Source: an uncultured delta proteobacterium (GTDB lineage Bacteria > Myxococcota_A > Polyangia > Fen-1088). Taken from it: a stretch of DNA of 64,000 nt. The position numbers and the translations under genes are program-made. Under the pieces are notes generated by a model. It was not told where the DNA came from. It made no database searches and saw nothing but the letters and a program-made list of their open reading frames with translations. Every line of letters starts with the position of its first letter. Position 1 is the stretch's first letter. The stretch spans positions 1,280,001 through 1,344,000 of the forward strand of contig CAVYGB010000002.1 of NCBI GenBank assembly GCA_963767925.1. Direction: 5' to 3'. This document shows, one piece after another, positions 30,426 to 59,338 of the stretch.

Positions 30426-31928
<1,503 letters not shown>

Positions 31929-32083: not shown

Positions 32084-32575
32084 ATGGAGCCGACTTTCCG
32101 CGTGGGGGACCTGGCCGTCTATCCGGCACATGGCGTGGCACAGATCATCGGTGTCGAAACGCGCGAGATCTCGTCGAGCAAGCAGACCTTCTACATCCTG
32201 AAGATCCTCGACAACGGGATGAAGATCATGATCCCGACGAAGAACGCCGCCGCCGTCGGCCTGCGCGAGCTCATCCGCGAGGAAGAGGTCGACGAGGTCT
32301 TCGAGATCCTGAAGAGCCGGGAAGTCGCCGTCGAGGGCCAGACCTGGAACCGCCGCTACCGCGAGTACATGGAGAAGATCAAGACCGGCTCGGTCTTCGA
32401 GATCGCCGAGGTCCTCCGCGACCTCCAGCGCCTCAAGGGCGACAAGGAGCTCTCCTTCGGCGAGCGCAAGATGCTCGACACCGCGCGCACCCTCCTCGTA
32501 AAGGAGATCGCCGTGGCCACCAAGTCGAAGGAAGTAAAGATCGAGGAGAAGCTGAACCGCATCTTCGCCTGCTGA
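32084..32575 (+). CDS. cdnL: CarD/CdnL-family RNA-polymerase-binding transcription factor
   Basis: FRVGDLAVYPAHGV, VGLR, WNRRYREYMEKIKTGS, EIAEVLRDL, LSFGERKMLDTAR.LLVKE. No HMGA-like tail. SD aggag. Confidence 0.93.
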   Translation: MEPTFRVGDLAVYPAHGVAQIIGVETREISSSKQTFYILKILDNGMKIMIPTKNAAAVGLRELIREEEVDEVFEILKSREVAVEGQTWNRRYREYMEKIKTGSVFEIAEVLRDLQRLKGDKELSFGERKMLDTARTLLVKEIAVATKSKEVKIEEKLNRIFAC

Positions 32576-32597: not shown

Positions 32598-32627
32598 CAA
32601 ACCCCGGAGTGTTCCTCCGGGGTTTTT
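32598..32627 (+). terminator. Rho-independent terminator after cdnL
   Basis: aaaccccggag-tgttc-ctccggggttttt hairpin with U-tract. Confidence 0.8.
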
Positions 32628-32739
32628 GCATTTCGGGGGCAAGGGAGCGACGGGGCGTCCTGAGGAGTTGGACGCAACGACAGGAGTGCCTCGTGACTCC
32701 GCGGACATAGGGGCCTCGTGACTCCGCGGACGGCTCACC

Positions 32740-32867
32740 TCTGCGCAGGGAAACGGTGAAGTCAGCGATTTACCGCGCGGTCGCTCGGGCCATTTCCATA
32801 GCATCTGCGCAGGGAAACGGTGAAGTCAGCGATTTACCGCGCGGTCGCTCGGGCCATTTCCATAGCA
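32740..32867. repeat. Perfect 64-bp tandem duplication, preceded by an ~18-bp direct repeat cctcgtgactccgcggac x2 at ~32689-32731
   Basis: tctgcgcagggaaacggtgaagtcagcgatttaccgcgcggtcgctcgggccatttccatagca at 32740-32803 and 32804-32867. Confidence 0.92.
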
Positions 32868-33186
32868 GGGGAGGGGAGGGCCCCGGAGTCCACGGCGCTC
32901 GCGTCCGACCTCGACGGCCCGGCCGGGTAAACCAATCGAGTTTCGGGTTGCCAGGTGATCCCGATCGCACAGGACACCCACGCCAAACGTCTCCGTCCCG
33001 CGCCCGTCGCCACGACCGTCGCGCTTCGGCAACCCGCTTGCGTCGACTCCGCCGGCCGGGCTAAGACTCTCCGCGGGAAGATAATCTGTTCCCATCCGCC
33101 AGCGGCGACACCCACTGACTGACAGCACGAAGTCCGTCCGCGCGGCCACCAGCCAGTGATTCACCCCCGCGCTCAAGGAGGCACCT

Positions 33187-34172
33187 TGAATTCCGCACCT
33201 CTTTCTCCCTCGCTTCCCGCACCTCCTGTCGGCCTCAGGTCACTGGCGGGAATCCTCCTGCTCTTCGGTGCTCTGACCTGCTCCCCCGACTACGAGAGCG
33301 GCGTAACCGCTTGTGCGGCCACAGAACCGAAATGCCCGGCGGGGTTCTTCTGCAGCGGCATCCGGTGCTACGCACTCGGCACACCCGGAGTCAACCCCAG
33401 CGGCGAAGGTGGATCGAGCACCGTCGGCACCGGCGGCGCATCCGGCATGGGCGCTGCCCCGGCCACCAGCGGACGCGGCGGCGGATCGAACCCACCACCA
33501 CCGGAGCCCACCGGCTCTGGCGGACGCGGCGGCAGCAGCCTCCCGCCCACCGTCGGCGGGAGCACACCGCCGCCTCCGTCTGGCGGCACGACACAGCCGC
33601 CCGCAACGCCTCCCGGAATGGCCGCCCGCTGCGGAGCCAAAGTCGCGGCGGACACTTGCGACACCTGCATATTCACGATGTGCTGCCCCCAGCTGCAGGG
33701 ATGTTTCGATACGAGGGAGTGCCCCGCCTTCCTCGCCTGCCTCCGGGACTGCAACAACAACGACGTCTGCCTCGAGATGTGCATCCAGAGCAACCCCAAC
33801 GGGGCCCGCCTAGGAACCGACTATCTTCGCTGCCAGGGAAAGTGCTCCAGCCAGTGCGGCGGCGGCTCCGCACCACCAGCAATGCCCCCACCCGGCCAGG
33901 CCCCGCCTGCCATGCCGCCGGGCGCACCCGCCATGTGCGGCGGAGCGTCCGCGACCAGTCCCTGCAGCCAGTGCGGTTTCGCCGGCTGCTGCTCGGAGAT
34001 CCAGACCTGCCTCGGCAACGCCGCCTGCGCGGCCATCGTGAACTGCCTCCCCGACTGCATGAGCGACCAAGCCTGCCGAGACCAGTGCCTGACCACCAAC
34101 TCCGCCGCAGTCCCCCTCTTCAACCGCTTCGCGCAGTGCCTCAGCGACAAGTGCACAAAGGCCTGCAGCTGA
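33187..34172 (+). CDS. Cys-rich lipoprotein with Gly/Pro linker and two copies of a CxxCxxxxCC...C domain
   Basis: SD aaggagg before TTG. Hydrophobic stretch ending ALTC. Duplicated CDTCIFTMCC../CSQCGFAGCC.. modules. Confidence 0.8.
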
Positions 34173-34283
34173 GCTGAACAGCCCCTGTTTCGTTAACCGC
34201 GGTCGAGCGGACGCCCCGGTCGCGCGCGCGACCCCACTACCCCGTCGACCGCGGTCGCGGCCCCGCTTCCGAGCACGGATCAT

Positions 34284-35492
34284 ATGCCCGAAGTCGTCGC
34301 GAACTCTCCTCCGCAAAGGACCACCATGCCTCCTCAGGTCATCTCGTGGCCAGCGTTGACGGTAGCAGCGGGTCTCCTCCTGATCATCCAACCGGCGTGC
34401 TCGGGGACAGACAGCACGGGTGCAGTGGGCACGGTCTCCTGTTCCTGCACGACCACGGGTGCTTGCGATCCCGGCCTGGTCTGTAGATCGAGCCTCTGCG
34501 TGGCCGACAGCCCCGCTGAGGGCAACGGCGCTACCGCCGGCATCACCCCGCCGCCCGAGAGGTCGATGAACGGCCCCCTCGAACCCTACCGAGGGGAGAG
34601 GTTTTCATTCGCCCGGCCCGTGGGGTGGCAGGTCATGGACGGACCTAACAATGGCCAGGACGGAAGGGAGGACAAGATGTTCATTTACCCCGAACCGGCG
34701 AGGGCAGGGGTTGGCTTCATTCGCCTCACCGCCGCGACTGTCCCATGGCACACGAACTCCCAAGCCAACGACCGCCTCGAGTACGTCCTCCGCGCTGGTG
34801 ACCAGACGGCGATCAGGCGACAGAGCTGCTGCACGGTATCCTTCTCCCACTGGTCCATGGCCATCGTCGACACCGGCAAGACCGGCTACAACCGCTTCCT
34901 GATGGTCCTGGCCAACAGCAACCGTCTCGGCTTCGAAAGTACGACTGCCGTCGAATCCCTGATCCAGGTCACCGCCGTCTCGATCGAAAAACTCGAGGAG
35001 GGCGCCCTGTGGATCGCCCTCAACATCGCCCAGAGCGTCGGCCCTCCGAACAGCTCCACCGCGGCGCTCGTTCATGGAACCTGGGAGAGCGTCCAGGGCG
35101 ACGGAACCGACTTCTTCGATGCCAGCGGCACCTTCATCGCAGGTAACACACACGGCGAATATCGCCTGTACAAGTTCCTCCCGAGTCGGCAGTACGAAAT
35201 CACCTCCGCCGTCGCCTTCCAGGGCCCCGTCACGACCAACGAAGCCATCGTCATCGACGAAGCCGGCCGCTACTCCCTGGACAGCGGCGTTCTAGCCCTC
35301 ACCCACCAAACTTGCATCGGGAGACAGTACAAGGACGGCGCCATGACTTTCCGCGGAGCCTGCGGCGAGGGAACGTCACCCTGGATTCTCCGAGTCGAAC
35401 CGCACTCTAACGGAGCCTTCCAGATGACCGGCGTCGCCTTAAACCCCGCCGGCTGGAACCGCCCCCAACTCATTGTTCCGTCGAGGAAGTAA
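34284..35492 (+). CDS. Lipoprotein with Cys-rich N-terminal module and lipocalin-like C-terminal part (paralog of 39637-41661)
   Basis: Signal peptide ending QPAC. SCSCTTTGACDPGLVCRSSLC. LEPYRG, VDTGK.G and GTWES shared with 39637. Confidence 0.75.
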   Translation: MPEVVANSPPQRTTMPPQVISWPALTVAAGLLLIIQPACSGTDSTGAVGTVSCSCTTTGACDPGLVCRSSLCVADSPAEGNGATAGITPPPERSMNGPLEPYRGERFSFARPVGWQVMDGPNNGQDGREDKMFIYPEPARAGVGFIRLTAATVPWHTNSQANDRLEYVLRAGDQTAIRRQSCCTVSFSHWSMAIVDTGKTGYNRFLMVLANSNRLGFESTTAVESLIQVTAVSIEKLEEGALWIALNIAQSVGPPNSSTAALVHGTWESVQGDGTDFFDASGTFIAGNTHGEYRLYKFLPSRQYEITSAVAFQGPVTTNEAIVIDEAGRYSLDSGVLALTHQTCIGRQYKDGAMTFRGACGEGTSPWILRVEPHSNGAFQMTGVALNPAGWNRPQLIVPSRK

Positions 35493-35496
35493 CACG

Positions 35497-35705
35497 TGCC
35501 ATTTCGGTCATCAGGGTTGGTGGTCTCCTCGCTTGCGGGTCTCTTTAACACCATCTTGTGGCTCGACGGTGGGATCGCCGAGGAGCTGGTGCCAGTGCTT
35601 GGGGTCGACCTGGCTGGTCATGATGGTGGCGCGGTTGCCGCAGCGGTCCTCCAGGACCTCGAGCAGGTCGTTCTTCTCGGTCTCACGCGGGGCCGTCAGC
35701 TCGGC
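35497..35705 (-). mobile_element. istB: Degraded IS21-family remnant (istB C-terminal fragment and probable terminal repeat)
   Basis: NDLLEVLEDRCGNRATIMTSQVDPKHWHQLLGDPTV matches the IstB C-terminus. HKMVLK follows in another frame. tgccatttcggtcatc at ~35497 resembles an IS21 end. Confidence 0.75.
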
Positions 35706-35922
35706 AGACATACTCAGCCGTCGAAGAGGGGGCTGTGTCCACACAGGCCCCCGGGCGCCTAAGTCCCTCTCGCCCTCTCGCTCCTCCCACCAATCTTCGG
35801 GGCGTACACGTCTTCGGGGCATACCCGCGGCTCTCGCCTCTTACCGTTCAATCCCGTGAGGGCCGTCGATGCGCCGGCGCCGCTTGTCCACAAAACGCCC
35901 AAAGGAGTGTCGCACAGGCCCC

Positions 35923-35961
35923 GAAAGAAGAGCCCCTGACGGCCAAATGGCGTCAGGGGCT
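35923..35961 (-). terminator. Probable intrinsic terminator of the minus-strand cassette
   Basis: agcccctgac-ggccaaatggc-gtcaggggct hairpin followed on the minus strand by cttctttc. Confidence 0.65.
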
Positions 35962-35983
35962 GGATTCTCTGCCTCTTCGGCCT

Positions 35984-36469
35984 TCAAACTCGAAGATTCT
36001 GCTGAAGAGCTTTGTTGGTCTCGTGCTTCGCCTGGGCCAACTGACTCTGCAGAGTGATTGCACTGTGCCACATCTGCATAGACTCCTGCTGCTTCATCAT
36101 CTCTAGCTGAAAAAGCTTGTTCGGGTCACCCGCCGCCATCTCTTCCAACTTGGCGAATCGGTCTCCGCCTCCACCAAGAGGCCCTTCTAGCTCGCCCCCA
36201 CCGAAACCAGCACCTCCTGCTCCTGCTCCTGCTCCTGCTTGTCCCTGCCGCGACGGTGCTTCCGGCTCGGTCTGGAAGAAACCCTTGGCGGCCTCTTTGA
36301 GGTTCGGCGCGACGTCGACTACGTCCTGCGCCAGCCCGAGCCAATTTCCCGTCGCGGCGTTAACGACTCCGCTCGCGATGTCGCCCACGCCTTCGGGAAA
36401 TCCAAGGGCGTCAAAAACGCCTTCCGCTACGCTACCGAGGCCGCCGGTGATCTTGTCCAAAAAGCCCAT
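35984..36469 (-). CDS. Small Gly-rich protein with T3SS needle/inner-rod (SctF/SctI)-like C-terminal helix
   Basis: SD gaggga. No signal peptide. C-terminus DPNKLFQLEMMKQQESMQMWHSAITLQSQLAQAKHETNKALQQNLRV resembles the ..P..L...Q......S...K..HD..K.I..N.R pattern. Confidence 0.6.
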   Translation of the reverse strand: MGFLDKITGGLGSVAEGVFDALGFPEGVGDIASGVVNAATGNWLGLAQDVVDVAPNLKEAAKGFFQTEPEAPSRQGQAGAGAGAGGAGFGGGELEGPLGGGGDRFAKLEEMAAGDPNKLFQLEMMKQQESMQMWHSAITLQSQLAQAKHETNKALQQNLRV

Positions 36470-36511
36470 TTTTATCTCCCTCTATTCGACTTTCGTTTTG
36501 TCCAATCGACG

Positions 36512-36871
36512 CTACTGAGAGGCGTTCTGCTTGGCCTCTTGAACCGCTCGAGCAAACTGAAGCAGCTCTTCTCTCATCTTGCGAATGTTCTCGTTCGCCG
36601 GATCGATACCGTGTGCCGTCTCCAACAGGACCAACGCTTCCTTGAACTGGTTCTGCTTCCGAAGCATCGTCGCATAGAGGCCGAGCGACCAAGCATCCTT
36701 GCTCTCAACGGCCAGAACCCCTTTCAACAGCTTCTGAGCGTCCTCGTACCGTTCCGCCTGGTATAAGTTGTACGCTGTCTGACGCATTTCTTGGAGAAGC
36801 GCGGGGGGAGCATCTACGACGTCCTTGACCGTCAGTGCACCCCAGGCGGGCTGTTCGCGAGCGTTGTCCAT
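36512..36871 (-). CDS. Small TPR protein resembling SycD/LcrH/IpgC-type T3SS chaperones
   Basis: 119 aa, SD aagga. TVKDVVD.P..LLQEM..AYNLYQAERYEDAQKLLKGVLAVESKDAWSLGLYA..RKQNQFKEAL..DP.N. Confidence 0.7.
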   Translation of the reverse strand: MDNAREQPAWGALTVKDVVDAPPALLQEMRQTAYNLYQAERYEDAQKLLKGVLAVESKDAWSLGLYATMLRKQNQFKEALVLLETAHGIDPANENIRKMREELLQFARAVQEAKQNASQ

Positions 36872-37010
36872 TGCCTTGTCCTTTCGTTCCGTTCCGTTCC
36901 TGAAAGCCAGTCCCTTATCGGGCCGGCCGGCGGACAGTTGCGTGTGCGAAGAGGACGGATGCCGAATATTTCGTCCCTTCTCGCAACCCCCTGTAACCCT
37001 TGAGTTTACC

Positions 37011-38675
37011 TCAACCTCCGGCCGAACAAAAACGCCCAAGCCGCCTGGCCAGCCGTAACTGTTCTCCAGCACGCTTGGCGCTCATGAGATTGAGCACATG
37101 CCGCTGCATCTCGAGGAGTGCGTCCCGGTGACCCCCCTTGACATCGCCCTCAAGTCCTGCTGTGAGACCGCGTAGAGCGGGCCCCAGTTCTCCCCTGCGG
37201 ATGAACGTGTAAGCAAGATTCAGATTTGTCTGCGGATCCGAAGGATCAATCCCCTGCGCGCAAACATAAGCCTCATGCGCCTCCCCGAACCGCGCTAGCG
37301 AATAGAGGAGGTCCCCACGAATGTTCCAAAGCCAGGCGCTGTACCAACGATTCAGACGCAGCGCCGCCCCGACCCACTCCAGTCCCAAATCCCGCTCCTC
37401 CGCCTGATTGGCAACCATCGCTGCCTCACCGAGCAGCGCCCAGTCTCTAGGACTCTCCAACAACGCCGCGCGATAAGACTCGAGCCCTTCTCTTAGTCGT
37501 CCCATCTTCAGGTTCTCCCGAGACCGCCTCAATGATAGGGCACGCCGCCGGCCAGACGCGGAGTCAAAAAGCCTCCCGAACGCCAAGGCTGTCAATCGCA
37601 ACTCTCGACGGGTGACGAGCCTGGAGTGAACCGCTTGCTCATCGTCTCCTACAGGACTCGATACGGTCAACGCCTGTCCGACCAACGTGTCTTCCAGCAC
37701 AGGGAAATTCACACCCATCGCCGAGGTAACACCAAAGCGCTCGGCCGTGAGTGGTCGCCCCGACGAGGACGACCGCGTGACACCGTAGTCGTTGATGAGA
37801 ATGAAACCATCATCGGATATAGCCTGCGCGACTCCCGACAGATACTCGAACGCTCCGAAATTCCATGCAGCAGCTTCGCCCTCGCGAAGGTCCGTTGCCA
37901 GCCGAGAAACCCCGGGGATCTGGCCAACACCGTCGACCCGAAAATCCATCTGATAGTCAAAAAGCGTGAGAAGCGGGAACAGCTTCTCGAGGTCCTGAGA
38001 GTCACCCGATACGGCGACGGCTCTAATGTCATCGACACACATTCCAGTAAAGGACCGAACTACCTCTGAGTCGTCTATCAACTCGGTGCGAATGCAGAGT
38101 TGCTCGATAACACCAGCAGTGGTCTTACGCACCAACGCCGCCGGAAGAACACACAGAAGATAGTTGCAGAAAACAGCGCGAACGCCGGTCTCAACCCTCA
38201 ATACGCTCCGAGCATCGGCCAAGTGAGCCCGCACATGGCCTCGATGACTCTCAAACAACTTCATCTTCCCCCATTGTTCAAGAGTCGCCGGAGAACCATC
38301 GGTCACGACGAACTGAAGACGCTCGTAGAAATCCTCTTGGGCGTCATCACAGAGGGCCCGGAACGCGTCCAAAAAGTGAAGTGCAAAGAGACCAGTGCCT
38401 GCACCGTGTTCCACCACCGTGATCACTCCACTTGGCCTCGTTTCCCGAAGGTTCGCTAGAAGCAGACGTGCCGCATCCTCGGAAAGACGGCCGCTGTTGT
38501 TAACCCGATAGGGAACCTCTTTCCGGATGAAGGGTTTCACGCCTTCCAGGCGCCAGTAGAGCTCAGAAACTCGCCATTCGAGACACTCGCTTATGGGTCG
38601 AAAATCCTCGATGAGTCGAGCGCCGCGAGGGTCCTCCACCCGCTGCGGGCCCCTACATTTCGCCTCCATTGTCAT
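37011..38675 (-). CDS. SAM-dependent methyltransferase (MidA/NDUFAF7-like) with C-terminal TPR repeats
   Basis: VVEHGAGTGLFA (motif I), FVVTDGS, FCNYLLCVLP, GFILINDYG, VNF. The C-terminal ~170 aa are TPRs (WLWNIRGDLLY..AYVCAQGIDPSDP..NLAY). Confidence 0.78.
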   Translation of the reverse strand: MTMEAKCRGPQRVEDPRGARLIEDFRPISECLEWRVSELYWRLEGVKPFIRKEVPYRVNNSGRLSEDAARLLLANLRETRPSGVITVVEHGAGTGLFALHFLDAFRALCDDAQEDFYERLQFVVTDGSPATLEQWGKMKLFESHRGHVRAHLADARSVLRVETGVRAVFCNYLLCVLPAALVRKTTAGVIEQLCIRTELIDDSEVVRSFTGMCVDDIRAVAVSGDSQDLEKLFPLLTLFDYQMDFRVDGVGQIPGVSRLATDLREGEAAAWNFGAFEYLSGVAQAISDDGFILINDYGVTRSSSSGRPLTAERFGVTSAMGVNFPVLEDTLVGQALTVSSPVGDDEQAVHSRLVTRRELRLTALAFGRLFDSASGRRRALSLRRSRENLKMGRLREGLESYRAALLESPRDWALLGEAAMVANQAEERDLGLEWVGAALRLNRWYSAWLWNIRGDLLYSLARFGEAHEAYVCAQGIDPSDPQTNLNLAYTFIRRGELGPALRGLTAGLEGDVKGGHRDALLEMQRHVLNLMSAKRAGEQLRLARRLGRFCSAGG

Positions 38676-38860
38676 TTCACCTCGCTCTCCTCTCGTCGGG
38701 CCGGCACGCGTCGCGCCGCGCTCTTCATGTGAGCTGCCTCGTCAGGACACTACACCAGCCCAGCGTGTCATTAAGCCTTGACTTGTGTCGTGCGCCAGGA
38801 TATTCGAAGAGGCCCGGAAACGCGCCACTTCTCTTCACCGCTCCACTGCGAGGAATGGAA

Positions 38861-39640
38861 ATGTCTACAGCTCTAGGGACGAGATGTACGGCTCTGCTTG
38901 CGATCGCGTGCGTCGCCACCCTCCCATCGATCGCCCAAGGACAGTACGCAGGGCCCGACGGCTATCTTTGGAACAACCCCGTGTCAGCCTCAGCGGCGCT
39001 ATTTATCCAGCAGAGCATCATGTCTGAGACCATGGGTTTGGGCGCCAATGCCAAGCAGCGCCTTCTAGGAGACACGGCTAAGCGCCGCAGTCCTTCCTCC
39101 CATCGCCAACCAGGCGGTACGACAGCATTTACGCCGAGACGCCATACCGTTCTGGACCAATTCACAGGCACCCGAAGAGACCAAGCAACCAAACTCTTGG
39201 ACGACTGTCAAAAGGTGTATGCCAAAACCTTAGCGCTGACAGGAGCGGCCCAGCCCTCCGAACTCAATGACCTCTCAACTTCGACCGCCTTCTACTTCAT
39301 CATCGCTCACTATATCTATTGGCAGGGTCAATCCCAGGTTCCTGCGGACCCTCAGCCCGCGCATTTTCAGACTCTCCGAAACAAACTCCGCGTCCGGTAT
39401 GTCTCCAACGGAAGTATGATTGGTAAGAGCGACACCGAAAAGCAAGCCGCTCACGACAGCTTGGTTCTTTCCGCTTGCATACCCATGGTGCAATTCACTC
39501 AGGCCAAGAAGGCGAACAGCGAGCCAGGCAAACAAACGGCGCGAAAGGCCGCCGCAGACCTGCTAACCAGGCTCGGTCTTTCTCCGAATGCGATGCGATT
39601 TCAGCCCGACGGTACCGTCCTCATTCGTGGTATCGATTGA
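38861..39640 (+). CDS. Secreted hypothetical protein (DUF6683-like)
   Basis: Signal peptide ..SIAQG-QY. GYLWNNPVS, NDLSTSTAFY, KSDTEKQ. SD gagga. Confidence 0.6.
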   Translation: MSTALGTRCTALLAIACVATLPSIAQGQYAGPDGYLWNNPVSASAALFIQQSIMSETMGLGANAKQRLLGDTAKRRSPSSHRQPGGTTAFTPRRHTVLDQFTGTRRDQATKLLDDCQKVYAKTLALTGAAQPSELNDLSTSTAFYFIIAHYIYWQGQSQVPADPQPAHFQTLRNKLRVRYVSNGSMIGKSDTEKQAAHDSLVLSACIPMVQFTQAKKANSEPGKQTARKAAADLLTRLGLSPNAMRFQPDGTVLIRGID

Positions 39641-41661
39641 AACCCCTTCTGCCCTCTCGGATAGCGGCGATCGGACCCCGAGTCTTCGTCACTCTGGCGT
39701 TGGCGGCATTTTCGGCTGGCTGCCCGGGACCGGGAGAACGTTGCACCTTGGGCACCGACGGTTGCGCCTGCACATCATCGCTGACCTGCGATCTGGGCTT
39801 GGTCTGTGCGTCCCAGGTCTGCCGGGGCCCTTCCCCGGGGGCCGCCGCAGGAAGTAGCGCCGACTCCGTATCACTCGAGCCGTTCAGGGCACCGGATATC
39901 ACATTCGCGAAGCCGAAGGGCCTGCTTCGGAAGGGTAACGATGCTCGCGTCTACGTCTTCGAGGCACCGAATCTGGACGAGGCCCCCATCACGGGGTTTC
40001 AGGTCGGTTACCTGGGACACATCCGCTCCTCGCAGGTTCCATCTGCCCTTCAGGTGCTAGAGAAGGTCATCACGAGCGAAAAGCTCACGTCCGTCGGGAC
40101 ACCGGCGTCTTCGCCTGAATACGCCACCTCGCTGGTGGATACCGGAAAGCCCGGTCCTTTTCGGTATGCTCGGATATCAGCGCTACGTCACTGGAAACTC
40201 GTTAGCGAAGGCGTCGCCGCTGTCCACCAGCCCCCTCCGCTCTCCCTAGACCTTCTGCTCCTTCAGATCAGCTTTCCAGACTCGGAGATCGACGAGAAGC
40301 TCAAGCTTCCGTACCTCCTCAAATCCATCGCGTGGGGCGTGGCCTTGCCGCCCGACACCCTTTCTCTGGACGAGCTATCGGGTACCTGGGAGAGCTCCAG
40401 TGGTGGTTTCCCCAGCGACGCCTTCACTTCGGAAGGTATCTACACCGGGTCCTTCCAGTCAGGGAGCCTCTTCCGAATTGCTCTCGATCAAACATGGACC
40501 TACGACCTCCTCACCTCCTTCTCTGTAAGCTGTGCCGGCGTCCCTGGCTGTGTCCTCGAGGGAATCGCCACGACAAGCAGTCGAGGGCGCTATCTGGCGG
40601 AGGGCGGCACGATCACCTTCGAGCCTTCCCGCTGCCAGTATCGTTTCTACGACAGGAACGTCCAGCTGAAGACGATGGCGGGATGTTCGCCGGACATGCT
40701 GCCAGCTACCTTGCGCATGGGCCGCGGTCCGCGAGGCGGGTTGTCCGTCGGCGGCCTTGGTACCGTCCCGGTGAACGCCGACCAGCAGAAACTCCTCCAC
40801 GCTGCCAGGAAGGGCGGGCCAGGCGGCACCTGGGACGCTCCAGTTGAAGGCCCTCCTCGTCCCGTCGATGAGACCTTCAATATCTGCGGCCTCTCCGAGA
40901 GTGAGCCGAACGATGAGCCGACCCAAGCCACCCCGGTGGTCGCGCAGCAGCGAGGATGTCTCCCGACCAGCCAGGACGTCGACCTCTTCCGCGCAACCGC
41001 CCCGGCCTCTGATCTCGGGGGCGGCTACTACGAAGGCTCGCTCTCCAGCGTCAACGCGCTCAGCCTGGAGGTTTATCCAGGAGCAGACCTTTCCGCTTCG
41101 AATCGTCTCTTGGCTGCCAGTACAGGGCGTGGTGATCGGACGTACTTCTACTGGCCAGGTGCCCCCGGTCAGACCTACACGTTGCGATTGAACACCGCTT
41201 CGCGCTCCTGGTGTGCCTACGACCTCGACATCGCCTACCACAAGGTAGACGACGCTTTCGAGGTCAACGACACTATCGACCAAGCCACCCCGATTGCCGT
41301 CGGTTCCCCCGTCGACGCCTTCTTCTTTGCCGGCAAGCGCCCGGGCACGCCGCCGATAAACTACGAGGACTGGTACTCTTTTCAGCTCCATCCTGGGCTG
41401 GCGACCATCCGCATCGATGTCCCGGCCGATATCGCTGCCGGAGTGAAGGTCATCGGTCCCTCCGGTTCGGGGCCGGAGCGCTATGTCTTCAACTCGTCTC
41501 CTGGCGAAGACTACCTCCTCGCCGGCTTCACGGTCATGACTTCGGGCACCTACCGGGTGAGGCTCACCTATGTCCCGGCCCCCGGGGGAGTGGCCATCGT
41601 AAGAGGGATGGTTCCCCCGAGCTTTACGACACCGTACCGCCTCCTGGTGACCCAGCCTTGA
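39637..41661 (+). CDS. Lipoprotein with Cys-rich N-terminal module, shared middle domain and two PPC-like (pre-peptidase C-terminal) domains
   Basis: TTG start overlapping the upstream stop. Lipobox SAGC. CTLGTDGCACTSSLTCDLGLVCASQVC. ESEPND..AT..DVDLF and DDAFEVNDT..AT..EDWY. Confidence 0.75.
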   Translation: MKPLLPSRIAAIGPRVFVTLALAAFSAGCPGPGERCTLGTDGCACTSSLTCDLGLVCASQVCRGPSPGAAAGSSADSVSLEPFRAPDITFAKPKGLLRKGNDARVYVFEAPNLDEAPITGFQVGYLGHIRSSQVPSALQVLEKVITSEKLTSVGTPASSPEYATSLVDTGKPGPFRYARISALRHWKLVSEGVAAVHQPPPLSLDLLLLQISFPDSEIDEKLKLPYLLKSIAWGVALPPDTLSLDELSGTWESSSGGFPSDAFTSEGIYTGSFQSGSLFRIALDQTWTYDLLTSFSVSCAGVPGCVLEGIATTSSRGRYLAEGGTITFEPSRCQYRFYDRNVQLKTMAGCSPDMLPATLRMGRGPRGGLSVGGLGTVPVNADQQKLLHAARKGGPGGTWDAPVEGPPRPVDETFNICGLSESEPNDEPTQATPVVAQQRGCLPTSQDVDLFRATAPASDLGGGYYEGSLSSVNALSLEVYPGADLSASNRLLAASTGRGDRTYFYWPGAPGQTYTLRLNTASRSWCAYDLDIAYHKVDDAFEVNDTIDQATPIAVGSPVDAFFFAGKRPGTPPINYEDWYSFQLHPGLATIRIDVPADIAAGVKVIGPSGSGPERYVFNSSPGEDYLLAGFTVMTSGTYRVRLTYVPAPGGVAIVRGMVPPSFTTPYRLLVTQP

Positions 41662-41829
41662 CGTTCAGGTGCACGGCACTGGCTTTTGAGAGCGCCCCTC
41701 TGGTCAAACAGTGCAAGAGCGTGTTCGACTCTAACGGGCCTCCTTCAGTCTTCCCTCTCCCTCACGGTCTCGATGTCGAAACAGCCCGGGTGAATACCGG
41801 GTGTGCCGCGTGAGGCGCGTCCGCTTCAT

Positions 41830-43122
41830 TCACCACCGGGGTTGCACGTTGTTTCCAGAAGTCGTCAGCTGATCCAGTGTCCCGGTCGCGGGATCGATGG
41901 CGAACAGGTCGGCCCTCGGAGGTTCCCCGATGGCCATCCCGACCACGGCGCGTCCGTCCCCGACGACGGTCACCCACAGGACATCGCTGACGTCGTTCGT
42001 TGGCCGCAGGATCACGTTCATCTGGCCGCTGACACGATCCCAGACCGCAAGCCCGGCCCGGCGTCCCGACTGACCGCCCGCCTTGTATTCAAACTCCGCG
42101 ACCACCAGCGCACCCGAGCCATCTTTGAGCCATGCCGGCGTTTCGCTGCCGATCAAGAGAGGCGAGGCCGTCGTGCGGTCCGCCGCCACCAGCCGCTGTT
42201 GCTCGACGGGCGTCGTGCTCCATTCGTACAGGCCTGCCTCCGTCGAACCCGCGCAGATCTTCTCCACTACCAGCATGGACTGTCCGCTCGGACTGGGGGC
42301 CGGATGGCCGCTCACCTGGCAGGAGGGGTGCAGCTTGAACTGGAGGCTTCCCTCCGACAGAGACGCGAACCTTCTGCCCTCCGGCGGCAATAGGTCCAGT
42401 CGGTCGCTCCGCGATCCACTCGGTCAGCACCTGAAAAAAGAGCGTCTTCCCGTCTGCCGACCACGCGGGGGCGTTGACCGCCGTATGGAAGCCGCGCAGC
42501 CTGCAGCGCCCGGACATGCAGATCTCGTCTCCGGGGCAGGTCGAGCTGTTCGCACACATCTCTCCTGATCCGTTCCCCGTCGTGAACGGCGGGGTGAACC
42601 GGACGAACTGTTTTCCGTCCACGCTCACCGCCCAGATCGCTCCGGTGGGGAATCCTGCCGACAGGTCAGCTTGCGACGGACGAAAGCTGCTGGAGGCGAA
42701 CGCGATCGCCTTCCGATCCGGCGAGACGGCCATGCCTTTGATCCTCGAGCCACGGCCAACGTTGTCATCGAGCTGGCTGATCAGTCGCTCCTGCCGCGTG
42801 CTCAGGTTGTAGGAATAGAGATGAGACACCAAGGGCGCCTCTGTCCCCCCCTTTTGATCAGCTTCTCGAACACCACCTCGTCCGCCGGTAGGGGTTCGAC
42901 TGCGTTCCCACCCCCCTGCGTAGGCCCTCCCGGAGGCTCACCAGCACTGCTGCTCCCGGAGGGTCCCAAGCACCGACCTTCCACGCACATCCGGCCAAGA
43001 TCACAGAGACCCGCGCTCGTACACGTACAGCTCTCGGTGCCGACGGCGCACTCCTCACCGGAGTCGGGACAGCCACTGGCCAACCCTCCAAGTAACGCGA
43101 GAATCAACAGCTTCGTCCGCAT
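41830..43122 (-). CDS. Lipoprotein with Cys-rich N-terminal module and TolB/PD40-like propeller; frameshifts near 42850 and 42405 (error or pseudogene)
   Basis: Lipobox ASGC. CAVGTESCTCTSAGLCDLGRMCVEGRC. AVSPDRKAIAF, PAWSADGKTLFF, PAPSPSG, QLTTSGNNVQPRW, spread over three frames. Confidence 0.7.
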
Positions 43123-43271
43123 GAAGAGCTCCTCGTCCGTCTACGCGTTGAATGCGGCCCGGCCGCAGGCTGCCAGGCTACCATCAGTTGGCCCCACCAG
43201 ACGCCAAGCATTGACACGCTCTGTTCTGCCCGGATAGACAGTCTCTGCCTCATGCCGATCTGGATGCGCGG

Positions 43272-44639
43272 GTGATACGGGGGCTCTTCCGGGGCACCGT
43301 CCTCGAACCGGGGGACGCCGACTACACCTTGGCCTGCGCGGGGTTCAACGGTGAGACCACGCGGCGGCCCAGGTTGATCGTCCGCTGTGTCGACGATGGC
43401 GATGTCCAGGCGGCCGTCCGGCTCGCGGTGAACGAAGGCTTGCCGCTATCGGTGAGGGGAGGGGGCCACTCGATCGGTGGGTACGGGTCGGTGGACGGAG
43501 GCATCGTGGTCGACCTCCGCTCGAGGAGGCGGGTTTCGCTCGATCGAGAGGACGATGCAATTTCTGTGGAAGGCGGCTGTACCTGGGGCGAGGTGATCTA
43601 CCACTTGACTCGCGAGCACCGAGCCACGCCCGGTGGCTTCAGCGCTCGGGTGGGAGTTGGCGGCCTCACGCTCGGTGGCGGGTACGGGCTGCTGTCCCGA
43701 CTCCACGGGCTCGCCGCCGACAACCTCGTCCATGCCGACGTCGTCACGTCCGACGGCAACATGGTTCGAGCGGGAGCCGGAGACGCCGACCTGCTCTGGG
43801 CCATGAGGGGGGCGGGAGCCAACTTCGGGGCTGTCACTTCGCTGCGCTTGCGGGTGCACGCGGTGCCGCCCTTGCTGGTCGCTCAGGCCGTTTACCCACT
43901 GGACCAGGCGGGCGACCTCCTCCGGCGCTACGCCGAGCTCATTCCGGCCCTTCCGGATGCCACCACAGTCTACCTGGGCCTGGCCGGTCAGCCTGCGGGG
44001 GCGGGCGTCTTGACCTTCCTTGGCTTCCACCTCGGCGATCGGGCCGAGGCGGAGCGTCTGCTGGGTCCACTGGCGCGCCTCGGGCGGCCGCTCGTCGCTC
44101 AGATGCAGGCGGCGGCCTACTGGCGCATTCACGTTCCGGGGCCCGATAATTTCCTTCAGGAGGGCCATCACCACGCCTGGAAGGCGCATTTCCTGGCGTC
44201 GCTGGACGACGACGCCCTGGGGACTATCGCCGAGCACGCCCTTCAGGCCAGGAACCAGGATCTGCTGATCATGATCGAGCACCTGGGCGGCGCCATCGGC
44301 CGGGTCCGACCGGACGCGGCCGCATTTCCGCATCGCCACGCGTCCTTCGGAGTCGTCACCGCGGTGAAGTGGCGACCACCAGGCGCCGCCGATGACGCCC
44401 GCGCTATTCAGGGCAGCCTCCATCGGGCGCTGGCGCCCCGATCCATCGGGACCTATGTCAACTACGTCGGTAGTCCCCACGGTCCACTCGAGGTCGAGGC
44501 TGCCTACGGCGCGAACTTGCCGCGCCTCCGCCAGCTCAAGCGTCGCTTCGACCCCAGCAACCTCTTCCGCAGCAACGTGAACATCCTCCCCGCGGAGGCC
44601 TGCACGCCACTGCCCGGCGCTGGCCCGGAGCCCCGCTGA
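43272..44639 (+). CDS. FAD-binding oxidoreductase, berberine-bridge-enzyme-like
   Basis: SVRGGGHS (covalent FAD His), VGVGGLTLGGGYG.LSR.HGL..DN, DLLWAMRGAG.NFG.VT, YVNY..AYG.N..RL..LKRRFDP.NLF. Confidence 0.92.
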   Translation: MIRGLFRGTVLEPGDADYTLACAGFNGETTRRPRLIVRCVDDGDVQAAVRLAVNEGLPLSVRGGGHSIGGYGSVDGGIVVDLRSRRRVSLDREDDAISVEGGCTWGEVIYHLTREHRATPGGFSARVGVGGLTLGGGYGLLSRLHGLAADNLVHADVVTSDGNMVRAGAGDADLLWAMRGAGANFGAVTSLRLRVHAVPPLLVAQAVYPLDQAGDLLRRYAELIPALPDATTVYLGLAGQPAGAGVLTFLGFHLGDRAEAERLLGPLARLGRPLVAQMQAAAYWRIHVPGPDNFLQEGHHHAWKAHFLASLDDDALGTIAEHALQARNQDLLIMIEHLGGAIGRVRPDAAAFPHRHASFGVVTAVKWRPPGAADDARAIQGSLHRALAPRSIGTYVNYVGSPHGPLEVEAAYGANLPRLRQLKRRFDPSNLFRSNVNILPAEACTPLPGAGPEPR

Positions 44640-46264
44640 TGGACGTCCTCCTGGTGACCGATCTCGAGGGAGTGGCCGGAGTCGACGATGTCGGGGACCT
44701 CCTCGAGGGGACCCCAGGTTTCCCGGCCGCTCGAAAGCTCCTCGAGCGCGAGGTGGAGGCCGCCTGTCTGGGACTCCGGGAAGGTGCTGCCCGCGCAGAC
44801 AAGGTCCTCGTCTCCGACAGCCACCGCGGCGGCCCCTCTCCCACGCTCGACCCCCGAAATTTGCCGCCCGGAGCGCTCTTCTTCCGCGGCGCCGACGCCT
44901 ACGATCCATCGCTGCTCGACCGGGTGGACGCTGTCGCCTGTCTCGGCATGCACGCAGGTGACCGAGGCTTCACCCCTCACACAATCGATCTCTCCTGCCT
45001 GTGGGAGACGGAAGGACGTCCGGTCAGCGAGACTGACCTCTTGCTCGGCCTCGCCGCAGAACGGGGCTTACCGGTTGTCTTCGTCGCCGGCGACGATGCC
45101 CTGGCCCCCGGGGTTCCCTTCGTCCCCACCAAGACGGCGCTGTCGGCGATTCGCGCACGCTCGCGTGATCCAGCGGCTGTGGCGACGGAGATCCGCCGCG
45201 CCGCTGCGGGCAAGCCCGTGCCGGCGCCGGGTCTGACCGGCACTCTGGCAGTGAGGTTCCGCAGTCGATGGATGGCCGAGGTCGCCGAGCGCGCCGGAGG
45301 GCTACGCCTCGACGAGACGGCGGTTCGCCTTCCGGAGGGCTCTCTCTCGCAACGAATCGCCCACGGTCGCCGTCTCGTACACGCCGTGTCGGACCCGATG
45401 TTCGCGGCCTTCCGTCCCTGGGCGTTGCCCGAGGAAGCCTCCACCCTGGCAGCGCGCTCCTTCGAGAGGAGAGACCCAACGCCTCGGCAGTCCGAGGCCC
45501 GGCGCGCCCTGACTGCCTTCCTGTCGGGCTCCGAGGGTCCCGACGATTGGTGTCGAGCGAACCGCGCCCTCACCCTCCACATGCTCGAAGGTCATGCCCC
45601 CGCGTTCTTCGCTGCCGAGGACCTGGCCCCCGTCCTCGGCGAGGCCGTGGAACGGCTGGCCTTGGTCCCCCGAGACTTTCCGCCGGCGCTCGATCCGGTC
45701 CAGGCCATGGCCCGGCTCGACGCCATCTACGTACTTCATGAGCGCGGCCACCCTGCCCCGGTGGACGGGGACCAGCTGGCCCGCTTCGCGTCGACCACGC
45801 GTTCCTCGAACGTGCCTTTCGCGTGGTTGCTCGGCGAGATCGCTCATCAGATCGGCCTCCCGGGCCGGCTCGCCCTCCCTCCCCGCCCCTACCGACGGGG
45901 CATGCGGATCATCGACCTCTTCTGGGTGACGCACCAGATCCTCCTGGAGACCCGCTATCTTCGCAAGCCGCTCCCTGCCCGTGGCTGGGAGACCGCCACG
46001 GAAGAGCTCCTCCTGGCCACCCCCTTCGTCGTCGAAAACGGCCACCTGGACCTCGCCGCCCAGCTCTGCTTTTGCCTCACAACCGCTGGGGAGGGACGGG
46101 CCCCGGAACGTGAGCGCCTGCTCGCGAGCCTGGCGTCTCATCAAAACTCTCGTGGGGAAGTCATCGAGGACTCCACCGCCAGGCTCCGGTCTGCCGACGT
46201 TCGACGCCGCCTCGAGACCCATTGCACGGCTGCGGCCCTCCTCGCCTTTGCGACTGCCTGCTGA
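44639..46264 (+). CDS. M55 (DppA-like) metallo-aminopeptidase domain fused to a helical C-terminal domain (DUF6895-like)
   Basis: TDLEGVAGV, VSDSH, GMHA, HT, SETD, FVAGDD, TK (M55). C-terminal FWVTHQI..HLDLAAQL..LASHQ..G..HCTAAALLA. TGATG coupling to the upstream gene. Confidence 0.75.
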   Translation: MDVLLVTDLEGVAGVDDVGDLLEGTPGFPAARKLLEREVEAACLGLREGAARADKVLVSDSHRGGPSPTLDPRNLPPGALFFRGADAYDPSLLDRVDAVACLGMHAGDRGFTPHTIDLSCLWETEGRPVSETDLLLGLAAERGLPVVFVAGDDALAPGVPFVPTKTALSAIRARSRDPAAVATEIRRAAAGKPVPAPGLTGTLAVRFRSRWMAEVAERAGGLRLDETAVRLPEGSLSQRIAHGRRLVHAVSDPMFAAFRPWALPEEASTLAARSFERRDPTPRQSEARRALTAFLSGSEGPDDWCRANRALTLHMLEGHAPAFFAAEDLAPVLGEAVERLALVPRDFPPALDPVQAMARLDAIYVLHERGHPAPVDGDQLARFASTTRSSNVPFAWLLGEIAHQIGLPGRLALPPRPYRRGMRIIDLFWVTHQILLETRYLRKPLPARGWETATEELLLATPFVVENGHLDLAAQLCFCLTTAGEGRAPERERLLASLASHQNSRGEVIEDSTARLRSADVRRRLETHCTAAALLAFATAC

Positions 46265-46271
46265 GGCGCTC

Positions 46272-46310
46272 GCGCCCGAACCCTGCGTGACGGCCGCGCA
46301 GGGTTCGGCG
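46272..46310. terminator. GC hairpin between convergent genes
   Basis: ccgaaccctgcg...cgcagggttcgg inverted repeat. Confidence 0.5.
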
Positions 46311-46322
46311 TCTGGTGGCCCT

Positions 46323-46937
46323 CTACTGAGATCGGGGCGGCCGGGATTCGATCTTGCCGAGGGGGAGGACGGGTTTGTCGGGGGGAGGGGGGAGCTCGGC
46401 GGGTTTGCGGGTGGGATCGGTGTCGTCGATCCAGCGCAGGGTGATGAGGCGGAGCTTCATGTTGCGGGGGAACGTCGAGCGAACCAGCTGCTTGAGCTGG
46501 TCGGGAGTGGCGCCCTCCCGGCGGCGTTTGAGAAGGGTTCGCACCTCGGGTGGGGGATCGATCTCGGCACGGCCGAGATCGGCCGTCAGGGACAGCTCTT
46601 CGGGAGTGTATTCCTTCAGGGCGCGCGTGACAGCGGATGGGTCTCCGGGCGGGGCGCCCCGCTGGGCCTGGTCGGGACGCAGCGGGGGCATGCGGGTGGC
46701 CGGACGGGCAGGCGCTGCGGCCTGGCGAGCGGCAGGTACCGTCGGCTCATCGGTGGGCGAGGGGGGAGGGGCGGCCTCGGAGGGCGCCTGTGCGGTGGGC
46801 GGCACCGGATCCGCGGTCACGGCCGGGGCGGGCGCGGGCGCGGGCACGGAGACAACCGCCGGCCGAGGGCGCAGCCAGAAGACCGCTGCCGCTGCGGCCA
46901 GGGCCAGCAGCACCGGCACGATGATCCGCGCCTTCAT
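46323..46937 (-). CDS. Membrane-anchored Pro/Ala-rich hypothetical protein
   Basis: N-terminal TM helix. ATGA overlap with the upstream peptidase gene. Confidence 0.65.
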   Translation of the reverse strand: MKARIIVPVLLALAAAAAVFWLRPRPAVVSVPAPAPAPAVTADPVPPTAQAPSEAAPPPSPTDEPTVPAARQAAAPARPATRMPPLRPDQAQRGAPPGDPSAVTRALKEYTPEELSLTADLGRAEIDPPPEVRTLLKRRREGATPDQLKQLVRSTFPRNMKLRLITLRWIDDTDPTRKPAELPPPPDKPVLPLGKIESRPPRSQ

Positions 46938-49270: not shown

Positions 49271-49692
49271 CTGGAGGACCTCTCGCTGAAAAATGGAACA
49301 CTGAGCAAAGAAGCGTGCATAAGCTAACCGAAGAGCCGCAACACGTCCATCGCAGTGCTTGCACCAGGCGCGTTGTCGGATATGTAGTCTCCCGGCTTCG
49401 GATGCACGCCGGAAAAGTTGCGCGATTCTCGCGAGAAAAGCGGGTAGGCGGGCCGCCAGCCCGCTCTGGCCCGCTCCTCTGGGCCGGTCGAAGTCTCCCT
49501 TCCAGAAGGAAGGCGGGCTTCACCGCCGCTCCGCTTCTCGCTTTTCTACGCGCGGTAACGTGACTAAGCTGGCCCCTATATACTGCGTTGCGCTAACGCC
49601 ACCCGCATCGAATCCAGTAGCAACTCGTCGCAGGCGCAACCGACAAGAGCCGCCACAGGCATAACGCGCACGTCAGCGAAAGGATCTTCAAC

Positions 49693-51285
49693 ATGGCTTC
49701 GACGATCGACAACCGCAGCTCGGTGCACAGCGCCCCACCCACCGTCACCGAAGACGCCGGTGCAGCCAAGAGCGTCTCCAGCCTCCCGGCCCAGGGCCCC
49801 ATCTCCGGTGAGCAGGCTCGGGATGCCATCAAGCAGGCCACCCAGGATCTCGACGGGCAGGCCGCCGGCCTCGAATACAACCAGCTCAAGGACTGGGCCT
49901 CCGCCAACAAGGACCGCCTGTCACCGGAGGCGCAGAAGCTGTTCCAGATCTACGACCGATACGCGCTCGACGCCCTCAAGCAAGGCAAGACCGGCATCGA
50001 CACCGGCAACTACGACAAGATGCTCAAGGAGATGGACGGCGCCCTCCCTCCGACCTGGCAGAAGATGGACAAGATCGAGGGAAGCTGGCACCAGGCGTCC
50101 AATCTCCAGCAGAACGTCTTCGGGGAGATCAAAGACGCCTACAAGGACTTCAAGGAGCTCCTGAACCGCCAGCCGACCTACAACGACAGCGGCGCGGGCA
50201 AGGCCCTCCGGGATCTCGACAACAAGACCACCCTCGACAGCATCCGCAACGCCGGCCTCTCCGGCTCCGGCCGACAGGCCAGCGTGAGCGGCACCGACAT
50301 GGTCGACACGATCGACAAGGCCACCTCCGACCTCGATGGCCAGGCGGCCGGCCTCGAGTACCGCGACGTCAAGACCTGGCAGGACGCGAACAAGAACAAC
50401 CTCTCGCCGGAGGCCAAGAAGGTCCTCGACATCTACGACAAGTACGCCACAAAGGCGCTGGGCGAAGGGCGCACCCATCTCACCCAGGACGAGCACAAGT
50501 CGATGATCGCCGAGATGCGCGAGGCAGCCAAGCCCCAGCAAAAGGCCACGGAGTACAACGACAAGAGCGCGGGCAAGGCCATCGAGACCCTGAACGACAA
50601 GCTTCGGGGCCCAGGACAGGGCGACATCAGCGGCAAGGACATGACCAACGCCATAAACCGTGGCACGAAGGACGGCGACGGTCAGGCGGCGGGCCTCGAA
50701 TACCGCGACTTCAAGACCTGGTTCAACGAGAACAAGGACAAGCTCTCTCCGGAAGCCAAGAAAGTCATGGAGATCTACGACCGCTACGCGACCAAGGTCA
50801 TGGGCGATGGGCGCACCTCCTTCACCGCCGCCGAACACAAGGCGATGATCGCGGAAATGCGACAGGCGGAGAAGCCTGCGGCCCAGCACCTCGACGCGGG
50901 TGCGGGCAAGGCGATCGACGGTCTCAACGAGAAGCTCGGCCAGAAGAGCGGATCGAAGATCGATGGCCAGGAGCTGACCCAGGCAATCTTGAAGGGCACG
51001 GAAGACCTCGACAATCAGGCCGCCGGCCTCGAATACGACGAGTTCCGGAAGTGGGCCAACGAGAACGCTGCCTCCCTCTCGCCCGAGGCCAAGAAGGTGA
51101 TGGAGATCTACGACAAGTACGTCACCGAGGCTCACAAGCAGGGCCGCACCGGCATCCTGCCGGAGGACCACGCCAAGATGGTCACCGAGATGCAAGACGC
51201 CTCAAAGCCGAAGCTGACGGCGACCGACGTGATGAACGCGTACAGCTTCGAAGACATCCGCGCGCGGCTCCCGCACAAGGGCTAA
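49693..51285 (+). CDS. Hypothetical protein with four ~100-aa helical repeats
   Basis: Four copies of D.D[GN]QAAGLEY..W...N...LSPEA.K...IYD[RK]Y....G.T......KM..EM. No signal peptide. SD aagga. Confidence 0.88.
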   Translation: MASTIDNRSSVHSAPPTVTEDAGAAKSVSSLPAQGPISGEQARDAIKQATQDLDGQAAGLEYNQLKDWASANKDRLSPEAQKLFQIYDRYALDALKQGKTGIDTGNYDKMLKEMDGALPPTWQKMDKIEGSWHQASNLQQNVFGEIKDAYKDFKELLNRQPTYNDSGAGKALRDLDNKTTLDSIRNAGLSGSGRQASVSGTDMVDTIDKATSDLDGQAAGLEYRDVKTWQDANKNNLSPEAKKVLDIYDKYATKALGEGRTHLTQDEHKSMIAEMREAAKPQQKATEYNDKSAGKAIETLNDKLRGPGQGDISGKDMTNAINRGTKDGDGQAAGLEYRDFKTWFNENKDKLSPEAKKVMEIYDRYATKVMGDGRTSFTAAEHKAMIAEMRQAEKPAAQHLDAGAGKAIDGLNEKLGQKSGSKIDGQELTQAILKGTEDLDNQAAGLEYDEFRKWANENAASLSPEAKKVMEIYDKYVTEAHKQGRTGILPEDHAKMVTEMQDASKPKLTATDVMNAYSFEDIRARLPHKG

Positions 51286-59287: not shown

Positions 59288-59338
59288 CTCCGGGCGAAAA
59301 GCTTGCCTCCACCCTCGCCGGCACGCTAAGAACCGCCG

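Follow-up and report, generated by a model that had tools for sequence, protein, structure and literature searches.

The needle subunit of type III secretion systems (T3SSs), SctF, is about 70 to 90 amino acids (aa) long. Among the small tetratricopeptide repeat (TPR) chaperones of these systems, those of class II recognize an N-terminal peptide of the translocator, and YscG and PscG bind a C-terminal helix. In predatory Myxococcota, a nonflagellar T3SS is described without needle, secretin, and translocon in two reports (PMC12075869, PMC3459982), and these, with a third (PMC11509652), state that the Myxococcota T3SS lacks a needle and that SctF was lost. Here, we describe a locus in a 64,000-nucleotide (nt) stretch of DNA (the window) from an uncultured delta proteobacterium of the Myxococcota. 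Three genes follow one another there, encoding a 554-aa methyltransferase-TPR fusion, a 119-aa TPR protein, and a 161-aa protein with a needle-like C-terminal helix. A sequence-only reading of the window had presented the three as an orphan, portable cassette that supplies a secreted subunit together with its own chaperone and a dedicated methyltransferase. We favor, with modest confidence, a different view, in which the last two genes alone form a conserved module, one of them encoding a small TPR chaperone and the other a needle-derived substrate of type III secretion.

The relationship to needles emerged from the family of the 161-aa protein. A word-index search with this protein returned a single homologue, P0002, at 42% identity, and an HMMER search of 1.84 billion representative proteins with a profile of the two retrieved, at E ≤ 1e-3, 141 proteins, of which many are full length. 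In an alignment of 26 members (subfamily A4), a conserved N-terminal domain of ~55 residues (G..VE..D..GLPE..GD.ASG..N..TGN) is followed by a Gly/Pro/Ser-rich middle of very variable length and by a conserved C-terminal domain that ends ..M.TLLTNL...HE..MAIIRN.RA, in which N158 and Q128 are invariant and H149 is nearly so. Longer members of the family, of up to 493 aa, retain both termini. The window protein itself has three parts: an N-terminal helical domain (residues ~1 to 65), a Gly-rich disordered linker (66 to 103), and a C-terminal helix (116 to 160). AlphaFold2, run with the A4 alignment, predicts N-terminal helices at residues 4 to 22, 26 to 40, and 43 to 65 (pLDDT 58 to 75), disorder throughout the linker, a short helix at residues 104 to 112, and the C-terminal helix at a pLDDT of about 90.

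When the 26 A4 members were scanned singly, 12 matched the needle family PF09392 (T3SS_needle_F; best E 2.7e-6) and 3 weakly matched the EspA profile; these were the only families matched repeatedly. In the PDB, the A4 profile matched a 43-residue chain, 7y6c_F (E 7.8e-6), a PrgI-SipD fusion (E 0.0043), and PrgI (E 0.09 to 0.23), and all of these alignments lie at profile positions 125 to 166 and run through the terminal IIQNFR. The 7y6c entry appears under a co-chaperone name in the PDB match table, and we take its 43-residue chain to be a needle fragment. The nearest ESM-Atlas clusters consist of Myxococcota hypothetical proteins, and in one of them 17% of the members have PF09392. Judged by these profiles, the 161-aa protein belongs to an undescribed family whose C-terminal helix appears homologous, at the family level, to the needle helix. 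The description of the protein as SctF/SctI-like, offered by the sequence-only reading, therefore holds for this helix in the family (12 of 26 members) and does not extend to the window protein on its own, which has no Pfam match.

A second, more distant subfamily (A1, 119 proteins) shares its last 42 to 45 residues with A4 (hhalign, 96.9% and 97.7%). Two A1 members are encoded on another contig, C3, of the same genome, and their N-terminal domain differs from that of A4. We found no TPR neighbor beside either of these two genes, one of which lies near a Ser/Thr kinase gene. The link to the window protein appears only at the profile level: a BLASTP comparison of the window protein with the paralogue-like open reading frame (ORF) on C3 was not significant. 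In Pfam, the matches of A1 are marginal: 2 of 43 members match the needle family (best E 0.15), and 2 of 43 match HrpA pilin (best E 0.024).

The proposed partner is 119 aa long when read from its ATG; an upstream GTG would make it 186 aa. It matches TPR_19 in Pfam (E 3.5e-11), and its best NCBIfam match is LcrH_SycD (TIGR02552) at E 2.7e-6, with 27.1 bits versus an equivalog cut-off of 104.8. The profile of its family aligns with almost the whole of IpgC (E 3.8e-12); numerous generic TPR proteins match this profile more strongly. In a Foldseek search with the AlphaFold2 model of the protein (pLDDT 88.9), the natural proteins that matched best, by small margins over other TPR proteins, were IpgC (rank 5, TMq 0.72), PcrH (rank 10), and SycD (ranks 11 and 12). 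A weak sequence match and the fold lend tentative support to the earlier assignment of this protein to the class II T3SS chaperone type.

We modeled the TPR protein together with residues 100 to 161 of its presumptive client. Three runs scored 0.71, 0.64, and 0.72, versus 0.00 for the best of three controls; at least 76% of the contacts recur between runs, and the partner pLDDT is no lower than 75. A score at the 0.71 level was reached by 116 of 157 solved complexes and by 2 of 215 mismatched pairs, counts that hold only roughly here because we used our own alignments. The predicted contacts join TPR residues 13 to 55 with client residues 127 to 145, so that the TPR groove lies on the C-terminal helix. 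The TPR protein is therefore predicted to bind its client, as had been proposed, in the sense that the result shows likeness rather than binding, since the alignments were our own and similar complexes have been solved.

The two genes also keep company across genomes. In all seven loci examined from genomes of the window's own family, a TPR ORF related to that of the window (phmmer E 4e-11 to 6e-19) lies directly upstream of the needle-like gene and is co-oriented with it, so that the window order is kept. Among 20 further loci, taken from places listed in a search of the phylum, a TPR relative lies directly downstream in 9 by phmmer and in 10 by family HMM. The gene order in six of the seven same-family loci is pepA, carD, TPR gene, needle-like gene, a convergent 815-aa gene, and three further conserved genes, with the pair directly after carD and on its strand. 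In the window, pepA and carD are in place, and carD is 91 to 96% identical to the carD that precedes the pair in three of the related loci (L117, L119, and L121). The pair itself is divergent, the TPR protein being 34 to 46% identical to the TPR proteins of relatives, and the same-genus genome has the pair in a different setting. Because the same order recurs at the same chromosomal site in related genomes, we regard the pair as an old resident. It is neither an orphan nor a portable module, as the sequence-only reading had it, and belongs instead to a conserved locus adjoining carD. For the nearest relatives, the gene contexts came from the genome search, as two metagenome scans gave 308 and 40 pattern matches of which none was confirmed; a pattern scan of genome contigs with the pair alignment gave 60 matches, again with none confirmed.

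What has changed in the window is the interval around the pair. Synteny resumes only at C2:1344313-1351505 of the same genome, which places an insertion of ~31.7 kb between carD and the 815-aa gene. Within it, the pair is inverted, with a remnant of an IS21 element on one side and the methyltransferase gene upstream. The G+C content is 62% at 32.6 to 43 kb and 70.5% at 43 to 64 kb, and only the former segment is low. The three genes themselves have 57 to 60% G+C, compared to 73% in the first 32.6 kb of the window and 71% in the genome, and in this they are indeed AT-richer than their flanks. We considered low G+C as proof that the pair had been transferred and rejected it: in two relatives the pair genes lie 3 to 10 points below their surroundings, which suggests that the low G+C of the pair is partly intrinsic.

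Other features read directly from the sequence were confirmed. The three genes are co-oriented, and purine-rich, Shine-Dalgarno-like stretches precede their ATGs (GGAGAGCGAGG, AAAGGACAAGG, and GAGGGAG). The hairpin 3' of the last gene has a G+C-rich stem of 11 to 13 bp and a CUCUUCUUU tail; its folding energy is -38.4 kcal/mol (z = -4.12), a value that none of 200 shuffled sequences attains. A simple pattern scan did not list it, since the loop or bulge is larger than that scan allows. The neighboring IS21 relic matches IstB (NF038214) at E 9.5e-7 and 28.7 bits, versus a cut-off of 200, over profile positions 165 to 206 of 232. Because the match covers 42 residues only, we regard it as a remnant; no full-length IstB with an IstA transposase was found at this position. 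Among the 54 window ORFs scanned with Pfam (sets of 7, including the three genes, 20, and 13, plus small ORFs), no secretion-apparatus family was found, in agreement with the earlier statement that the window holds no T3SS apparatus genes. Coordinates of these and other features are collected in Table 1.

Table 1. Features of the window and of the rest of its genome (G000). Coordinates without a prefix are positions in the window.
Feature	Coordinates	Strand	Basis or remark
Methyltransf_28-TPR fusion, 554 aa	37011..38675	minus	ORF list; Pfam; sporadic, probably acquired
TPR protein, 119 aa, class II T3SS chaperone-like	36512..36871	minus	ORF list; TPR_19
Needle-like protein, 161 aa	35984..36469	minus	ORF list; family profile
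Intrinsic-terminator-like hairpin with U-rich tail, closing the three-gene unit	about 35921..35961	minus	Fold energy
IS21 IstB helper-ATPase remnant, C-terminal fragment only	35511..35822	minus	NF038214
carD (CdnL-type), left anchor of the locus	32084..32575	plus	Pfam CarD; synteny
pepA	30426..31928		Conserved neighbor, in place in the window
Inserted stretch, ~31.7 kb	32600..64000, on to about 64.3 kb		Pair inverted inside; synteny, G+C
A1 subfamily members (two)	G000:C3:34024-34518 (L002:1495-1989); G000:C3:51961-52659 (L090:9762-10460)	both minus	Profile
Complete flagellar clusters	G000:C8:503029-514305; G000:C8:564928-579654		
Second sctRSTU-like operon (FliP, Bac_export_3, Bac_export_1, Bac_export_2)	G000:C8:2004202-2007128 (L106:14202-17128)		Between rplQ and priA
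Second FHIPEP gene (SctV/FlhA-like), frame-broken	G000:C2:1269161-1271317 (L010:9161-11317)		9-11 kb before the window
SctN-type ATPase	G000:C8:1123777-1125024		16 kb from the third FliMN_C
Third FliMN_C (SctQ-like)	G000:C8:1141080-1141289		16 kb from the SctN-type ATPase

Several ORFs around the three genes encode secreted- or lipoprotein-like proteins that belong to no family (window positions 33156-34172, 34284-35492, and 38669-39640 and the region 39475-41661). One of the flanking proteins is Cys-/Pro-rich and 338 aa long, two others (402 and 728 aa) have N-terminal halves that look alike by eye, and a DUF6683 protein is also among them. The idea of a defense island was dropped, as PADLOC gave only weak TPR noise on eight ORFs of the island. 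The genome is 83.8% complete, and its assembly contains many broken frames. Frame-split or truncated genes include a lactonase and a P5C reductase (window positions 6479-8068), and the homologue of the 815-aa gene is in two pieces (C2:1344313-1346725). The frame-split genes and the completeness together suggest an error-prone assembly rather than true pseudogenes.

A type III substrate needs an export route, and the sequence-only reading had asked whether T3SS genes occur elsewhere in the genome. They do, as a flagellum and as scattered nonflagellar parts. The flagellar clusters are complete, even though the taxa of the ESM-Atlas matches point to Myxococcota, with flgC, fliE, fliF, fliG, fliH, flgD, flgE, motAB, flgI, flgH, and flgG as well as flhF, flhA, flhB, fliR, fliQ, fliP, fliO, fliN, and fliM. 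The nonflagellar parts include the second sctRSTU-like operon, a SctJ-like gene, and the frame-broken second FHIPEP gene, which stands alone among hisD, rplU, obg, and an M16 peptidase gene. The genome also encodes a protein over the SctN equivalog cut-off (611.4 versus 604.75 bits), and the region that holds the SctN-type ATPase and the third FliMN_C is probably a sorting-platform region. In another genome (G321), a lone second FHIPEP gene lies beside an FHA/YscD-like gene and a transposase gene.

Across a sample of 401 genomes of the phylum, for which we obtained the overlaps by our own cross-reading of three tables, the needle-like family occurs in 67, FHIPEP in 230, and FliG_C in 165. The family is present in 41 of the 68 genomes with FHIPEP and without FliG, in 24 of the 165 with FliG, and in 2 of the 168 with neither. 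FHIPEP is found in 65 of the 67 carriers of the family. This association is inflated by kinship, as a single family of genomes contributes 32 of the 67 carriers, and it is one of several points that count against a needle-derived substrate.

The others are best weighed together with the account that some of them would favor, in which the pair is unrelated to type III secretion: an intracellular or envelope coiled-coil client with a generic TPR partner, its likeness to SctF being convergent or too ancient. We consider this account unlikely but credible. In the genomes examined, the pair is never beside T3SS apparatus genes; the neighbors in 15 phylum loci are housekeeping genes such as uvrD, dapAB, and prmA, and in one genome (G013) a FHIPEP gene is 109 kb from the pair. 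Five A1 loci have no TPR neighbor. The 161-aa protein is roughly twice as long as a needle subunit, has an extra N-terminal domain and a linker, and matches no Pfam family at E ≤ 10, and PF09392 has no match in the genome at E ≤ 1; on sequence, the needle likeness of the window protein is carried by its family. A phmmer search of the PDB with this protein gave chance-level matches only (for example, alpha-synuclein), a Foldseek search of the PDB with its model gave none, and VIA-align over 48,161 chains returned only generic long helices (Z ≤ 5.5), although such searches are uninformative here because a single long helix cannot be placed by fold. On the side of the partner, the LcrH_SycD match is far below its cut-off, and designed consensus TPRs, MamA, and OGT score like IpgC against the model, as expected of folds that resemble each other. 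The score of the modeled complex may also reflect memory of solved needle/co-chaperone or translocator/chaperone complexes.

A generic coiled-coil client, however, leaves several observations unaccounted for. The only families that members of the A4 subfamily match repeatedly are T3SS_needle_F and EspA, and the PDB chains found by the profile are needle chains, with alignments that end at the very C terminus as they do in needles. Among natural proteins, those that best match the fold of the partner are T3SS class II chaperones, and nearly every carrier of the family holds FHIPEP.

In the reading that we favor, that of a TPR chaperone with a needle-derived type III substrate, the TPR groove would cover the amphipathic C-terminal helix of the client (residues ~127 to 145) in the cytoplasm, keeping it soluble and unpolymerized. 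The client would then be passed to a type III export gate, either that of the full flagellum of this genome or one formed by the scattered nonflagellar T3SS parts. Outside the cytoplasm, it could serve as a subunit of the axial or filament type or be an early substrate, and if it polymerizes, the conserved termini would form the core and leave the variable middle exposed, in the manner of flagellin or EspA. Such an arrangement would join a helix of the needle type to a variable display domain. For delivery by the "needleless" Myxococcota T3SS, a chaperoned family present in 67 of 401 genomes, most of them with FHIPEP and without FliG, is a concrete candidate. A bolder form of this idea is distinctly unlikely as a whole: tripartite proteins with an SctF tail, together with their TPR chaperone, would be the missing needle-derived component of the "needleless" T3SS, and in this genome a horizontally acquired, TPR-targeted arginine methyltransferase would have been recruited to modify it. 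That component might serve as a filament or a periplasmic rod, or it might be the substrate secreted first, and its hypervariable middle would be under diversifying selection. A full-text literature search, covering few subscription journals, found no description of needle-like proteins in Myxococcota.

The methyltransferase (METHYLTRANSFERASE) has a history of its own. Its identification as a Methyltransf_28 enzyme was borne out: residues 69 to 310 match PF02636 above the gathering score (E 1.4e-10; 41.5 bits versus a cut-off of 23.3), and the S-adenosylmethionine (SAM)-motif glycines G91, G93, and G95 are invariant in an alignment of 16 sequences. Residues 384 to 509 match TPR families. By analogy, the enzyme may be an arginine methyltransferase. 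It belongs to a family of >240 full-length Methyltransf_28-TPR fusions that are 40 to 50% identical. The 30 loci of this family that we examined lie on contigs titled Acidobacteriota, Delftia, Competibacter, Myxococcales or delta proteobacteria, and Planctomycetota. In 8 of the 30, the enzyme is encoded between DUF2169 and PAAR-like genes, with DUF6484, VgrG, and immunity genes nearby, which is the setting of a type VI secretion system (T6SS) cargo operon; in 10 others, it adjoins genes for a PG_binding_1 protein and a 340-aa protein. A conserved gene order was seen in the eight (L014, L021, L028, L029, and L031 to L034): DUF6484, a HEAT-like 437-aa protein, DUF2169, the methyltransferase, a PAAR-like protein, and a 370-aa protein, with VgrG and Imm11/Imm49 near. 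As a by-product of this analysis, the methyltransferase-TPR family thus appears as a recurrent and undescribed member of T6SS cargo operons; the literature search described above, with the same coverage, found no report of methyltransferase-TPR proteins in T6SS operons.

In the window, the three genes lie on one strand, separated by 139 and 42 nt and followed by a single strong terminator, so the methyltransferase is possibly cotranscribed with the pair. This arrangement is what suggested a three-gene module in which the TPR-fused, MidA-type enzyme methylates the needle-like subunit, or its complex with the chaperone, in the manner of flagellin methylation. We find such a module quite improbable. 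The pair was conserved as a neighborhood in 7 of 7 and 10 of 20 loci, but the enzyme is present in 0 of the 7 same-family and 0 of the 20 phylum loci, and conversely, searches of the 30 enzyme loci by phmmer (E ≤ 10) and with the family HMM revealed no gene related to either member of the pair. The TPR domain of the enzyme does align, over methyltransferase residues 403 to 509, with the chaperone family (hhalign, 95.1%, E 3.1e-8), yet this is unspecific, because TPR domains generally align with one another. In favor of the module, the SAM-binding glycines are conserved, and DUF2169 and VgrG, which could be the usual T6SS partners of the enzyme, were not found in this genome (83.8% complete). 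The gene is single copy here. Of 60 relatives, G423 alone gave a match to its catalytic part, and the same-genus genome gave none; in G423 the enzyme follows a DUF2169 gene, and the genome has no match to the small-protein family. From its distribution, the gene appears to be a recent, sporadic acquisition that stands outside the conserved module, and any methylation of the subunit by its product is purely conjectural.

In one genome (G176, L096:6791-7932), a 229-aa member of the needle-like family, with an N-terminal domain that matches A4, is followed by a 149-aa TPR gene ~6 kb from flgL-like, flgK, flgN, flgM, flgI, flgH, and flgA.

That the client is an accessory flagellar axial protein exported by the flagellar gate is very improbable: the genome has a complete flagellar set next to scattered nonflagellar parts, one of them frame-broken, the pair of G176 lies close to flgL, flgK, flgN, and flgM, and Abby and Rocha (PMC3459982) report profile similarity between SctF and FliC/FlgL, but a search for FliG_C at E ≤ 1e-5 found nothing in 43 of the 67 carriers, although 65 of the 67 have FHIPEP, FliG_C occurs in only 9 of 34 genomes of the family with the most carriers, and the SctN equivalog is over cut-off in three of four such genomes tested.

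Compared with SctF (PrgI, MxiH, YscF, and SsaG), the putative substrate of the favored two-gene module resembles a needle subunit at one end only. It has an amphipathic C-terminal helix of ~45 residues that follows a Pro-containing turn and ends ..II.N.R, its profile matches reach the very C terminus, and a TPR-type partner is predicted to cover this helix. Unlike SctF, it has 161 aa (140 to 650 aa in the family) and carries an additional conserved N-terminal domain and a hypervariable linker. Instead of a small helix-turn-helix hairpin, there is thus an N-terminal three-helix domain with a 38-residue disordered linker, and no apparatus locus surrounds the gene in the window or in the 15 syntenic phylum loci. 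In its conserved N- and C-terminal helices and hypervariable center, the family shares the build of EspA and flagellin, and a few members weakly match the EspA profile, although no flagellin or EspA domain exceeds a curated cut-off. The putative chaperone also differs, being a TPR protein and not one of the FliS or CesA kind.

The TPR protein, for its part, shares with class II chaperones (SycD/LcrH, IpgC, PcrH, and SicA) and with YscG, PscG, and SsaH a small size, an all-helical TPR build, and a gene adjacent to that of the putative client; binding through its concave face is predicted. It scores far below the TIGR02552 cut-off and, at 119 aa, is shorter than class II chaperones. Its predicted ligand is a C-terminal helix, which differs from the translocator peptide of class II chaperones and is like that of YscG and PscG; no YscE-like third partner was seen. 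Encoding beside the client was observed in 7 of 7 and 10 of 20 loci, and binding is predicted. The methyltransferase resembles MidA and NDUFAF7 (Methyltransf_28) in its Pfam match over cut-off and its Gly-rich SAM motif and differs from them in its fused C-terminal TPR domain, as a family of >240 proteins with a T6SS cargo context in 8 of 30 loci. Finally, the "needleless" T3SS of predatory Myxococcota belongs to the phylum to which the Atlas taxa point, and the genome of the window has nonflagellar T3SS parts and no Pfam-detectable SctF. To that system, the needle-like family would contribute a candidate needle-derived component.

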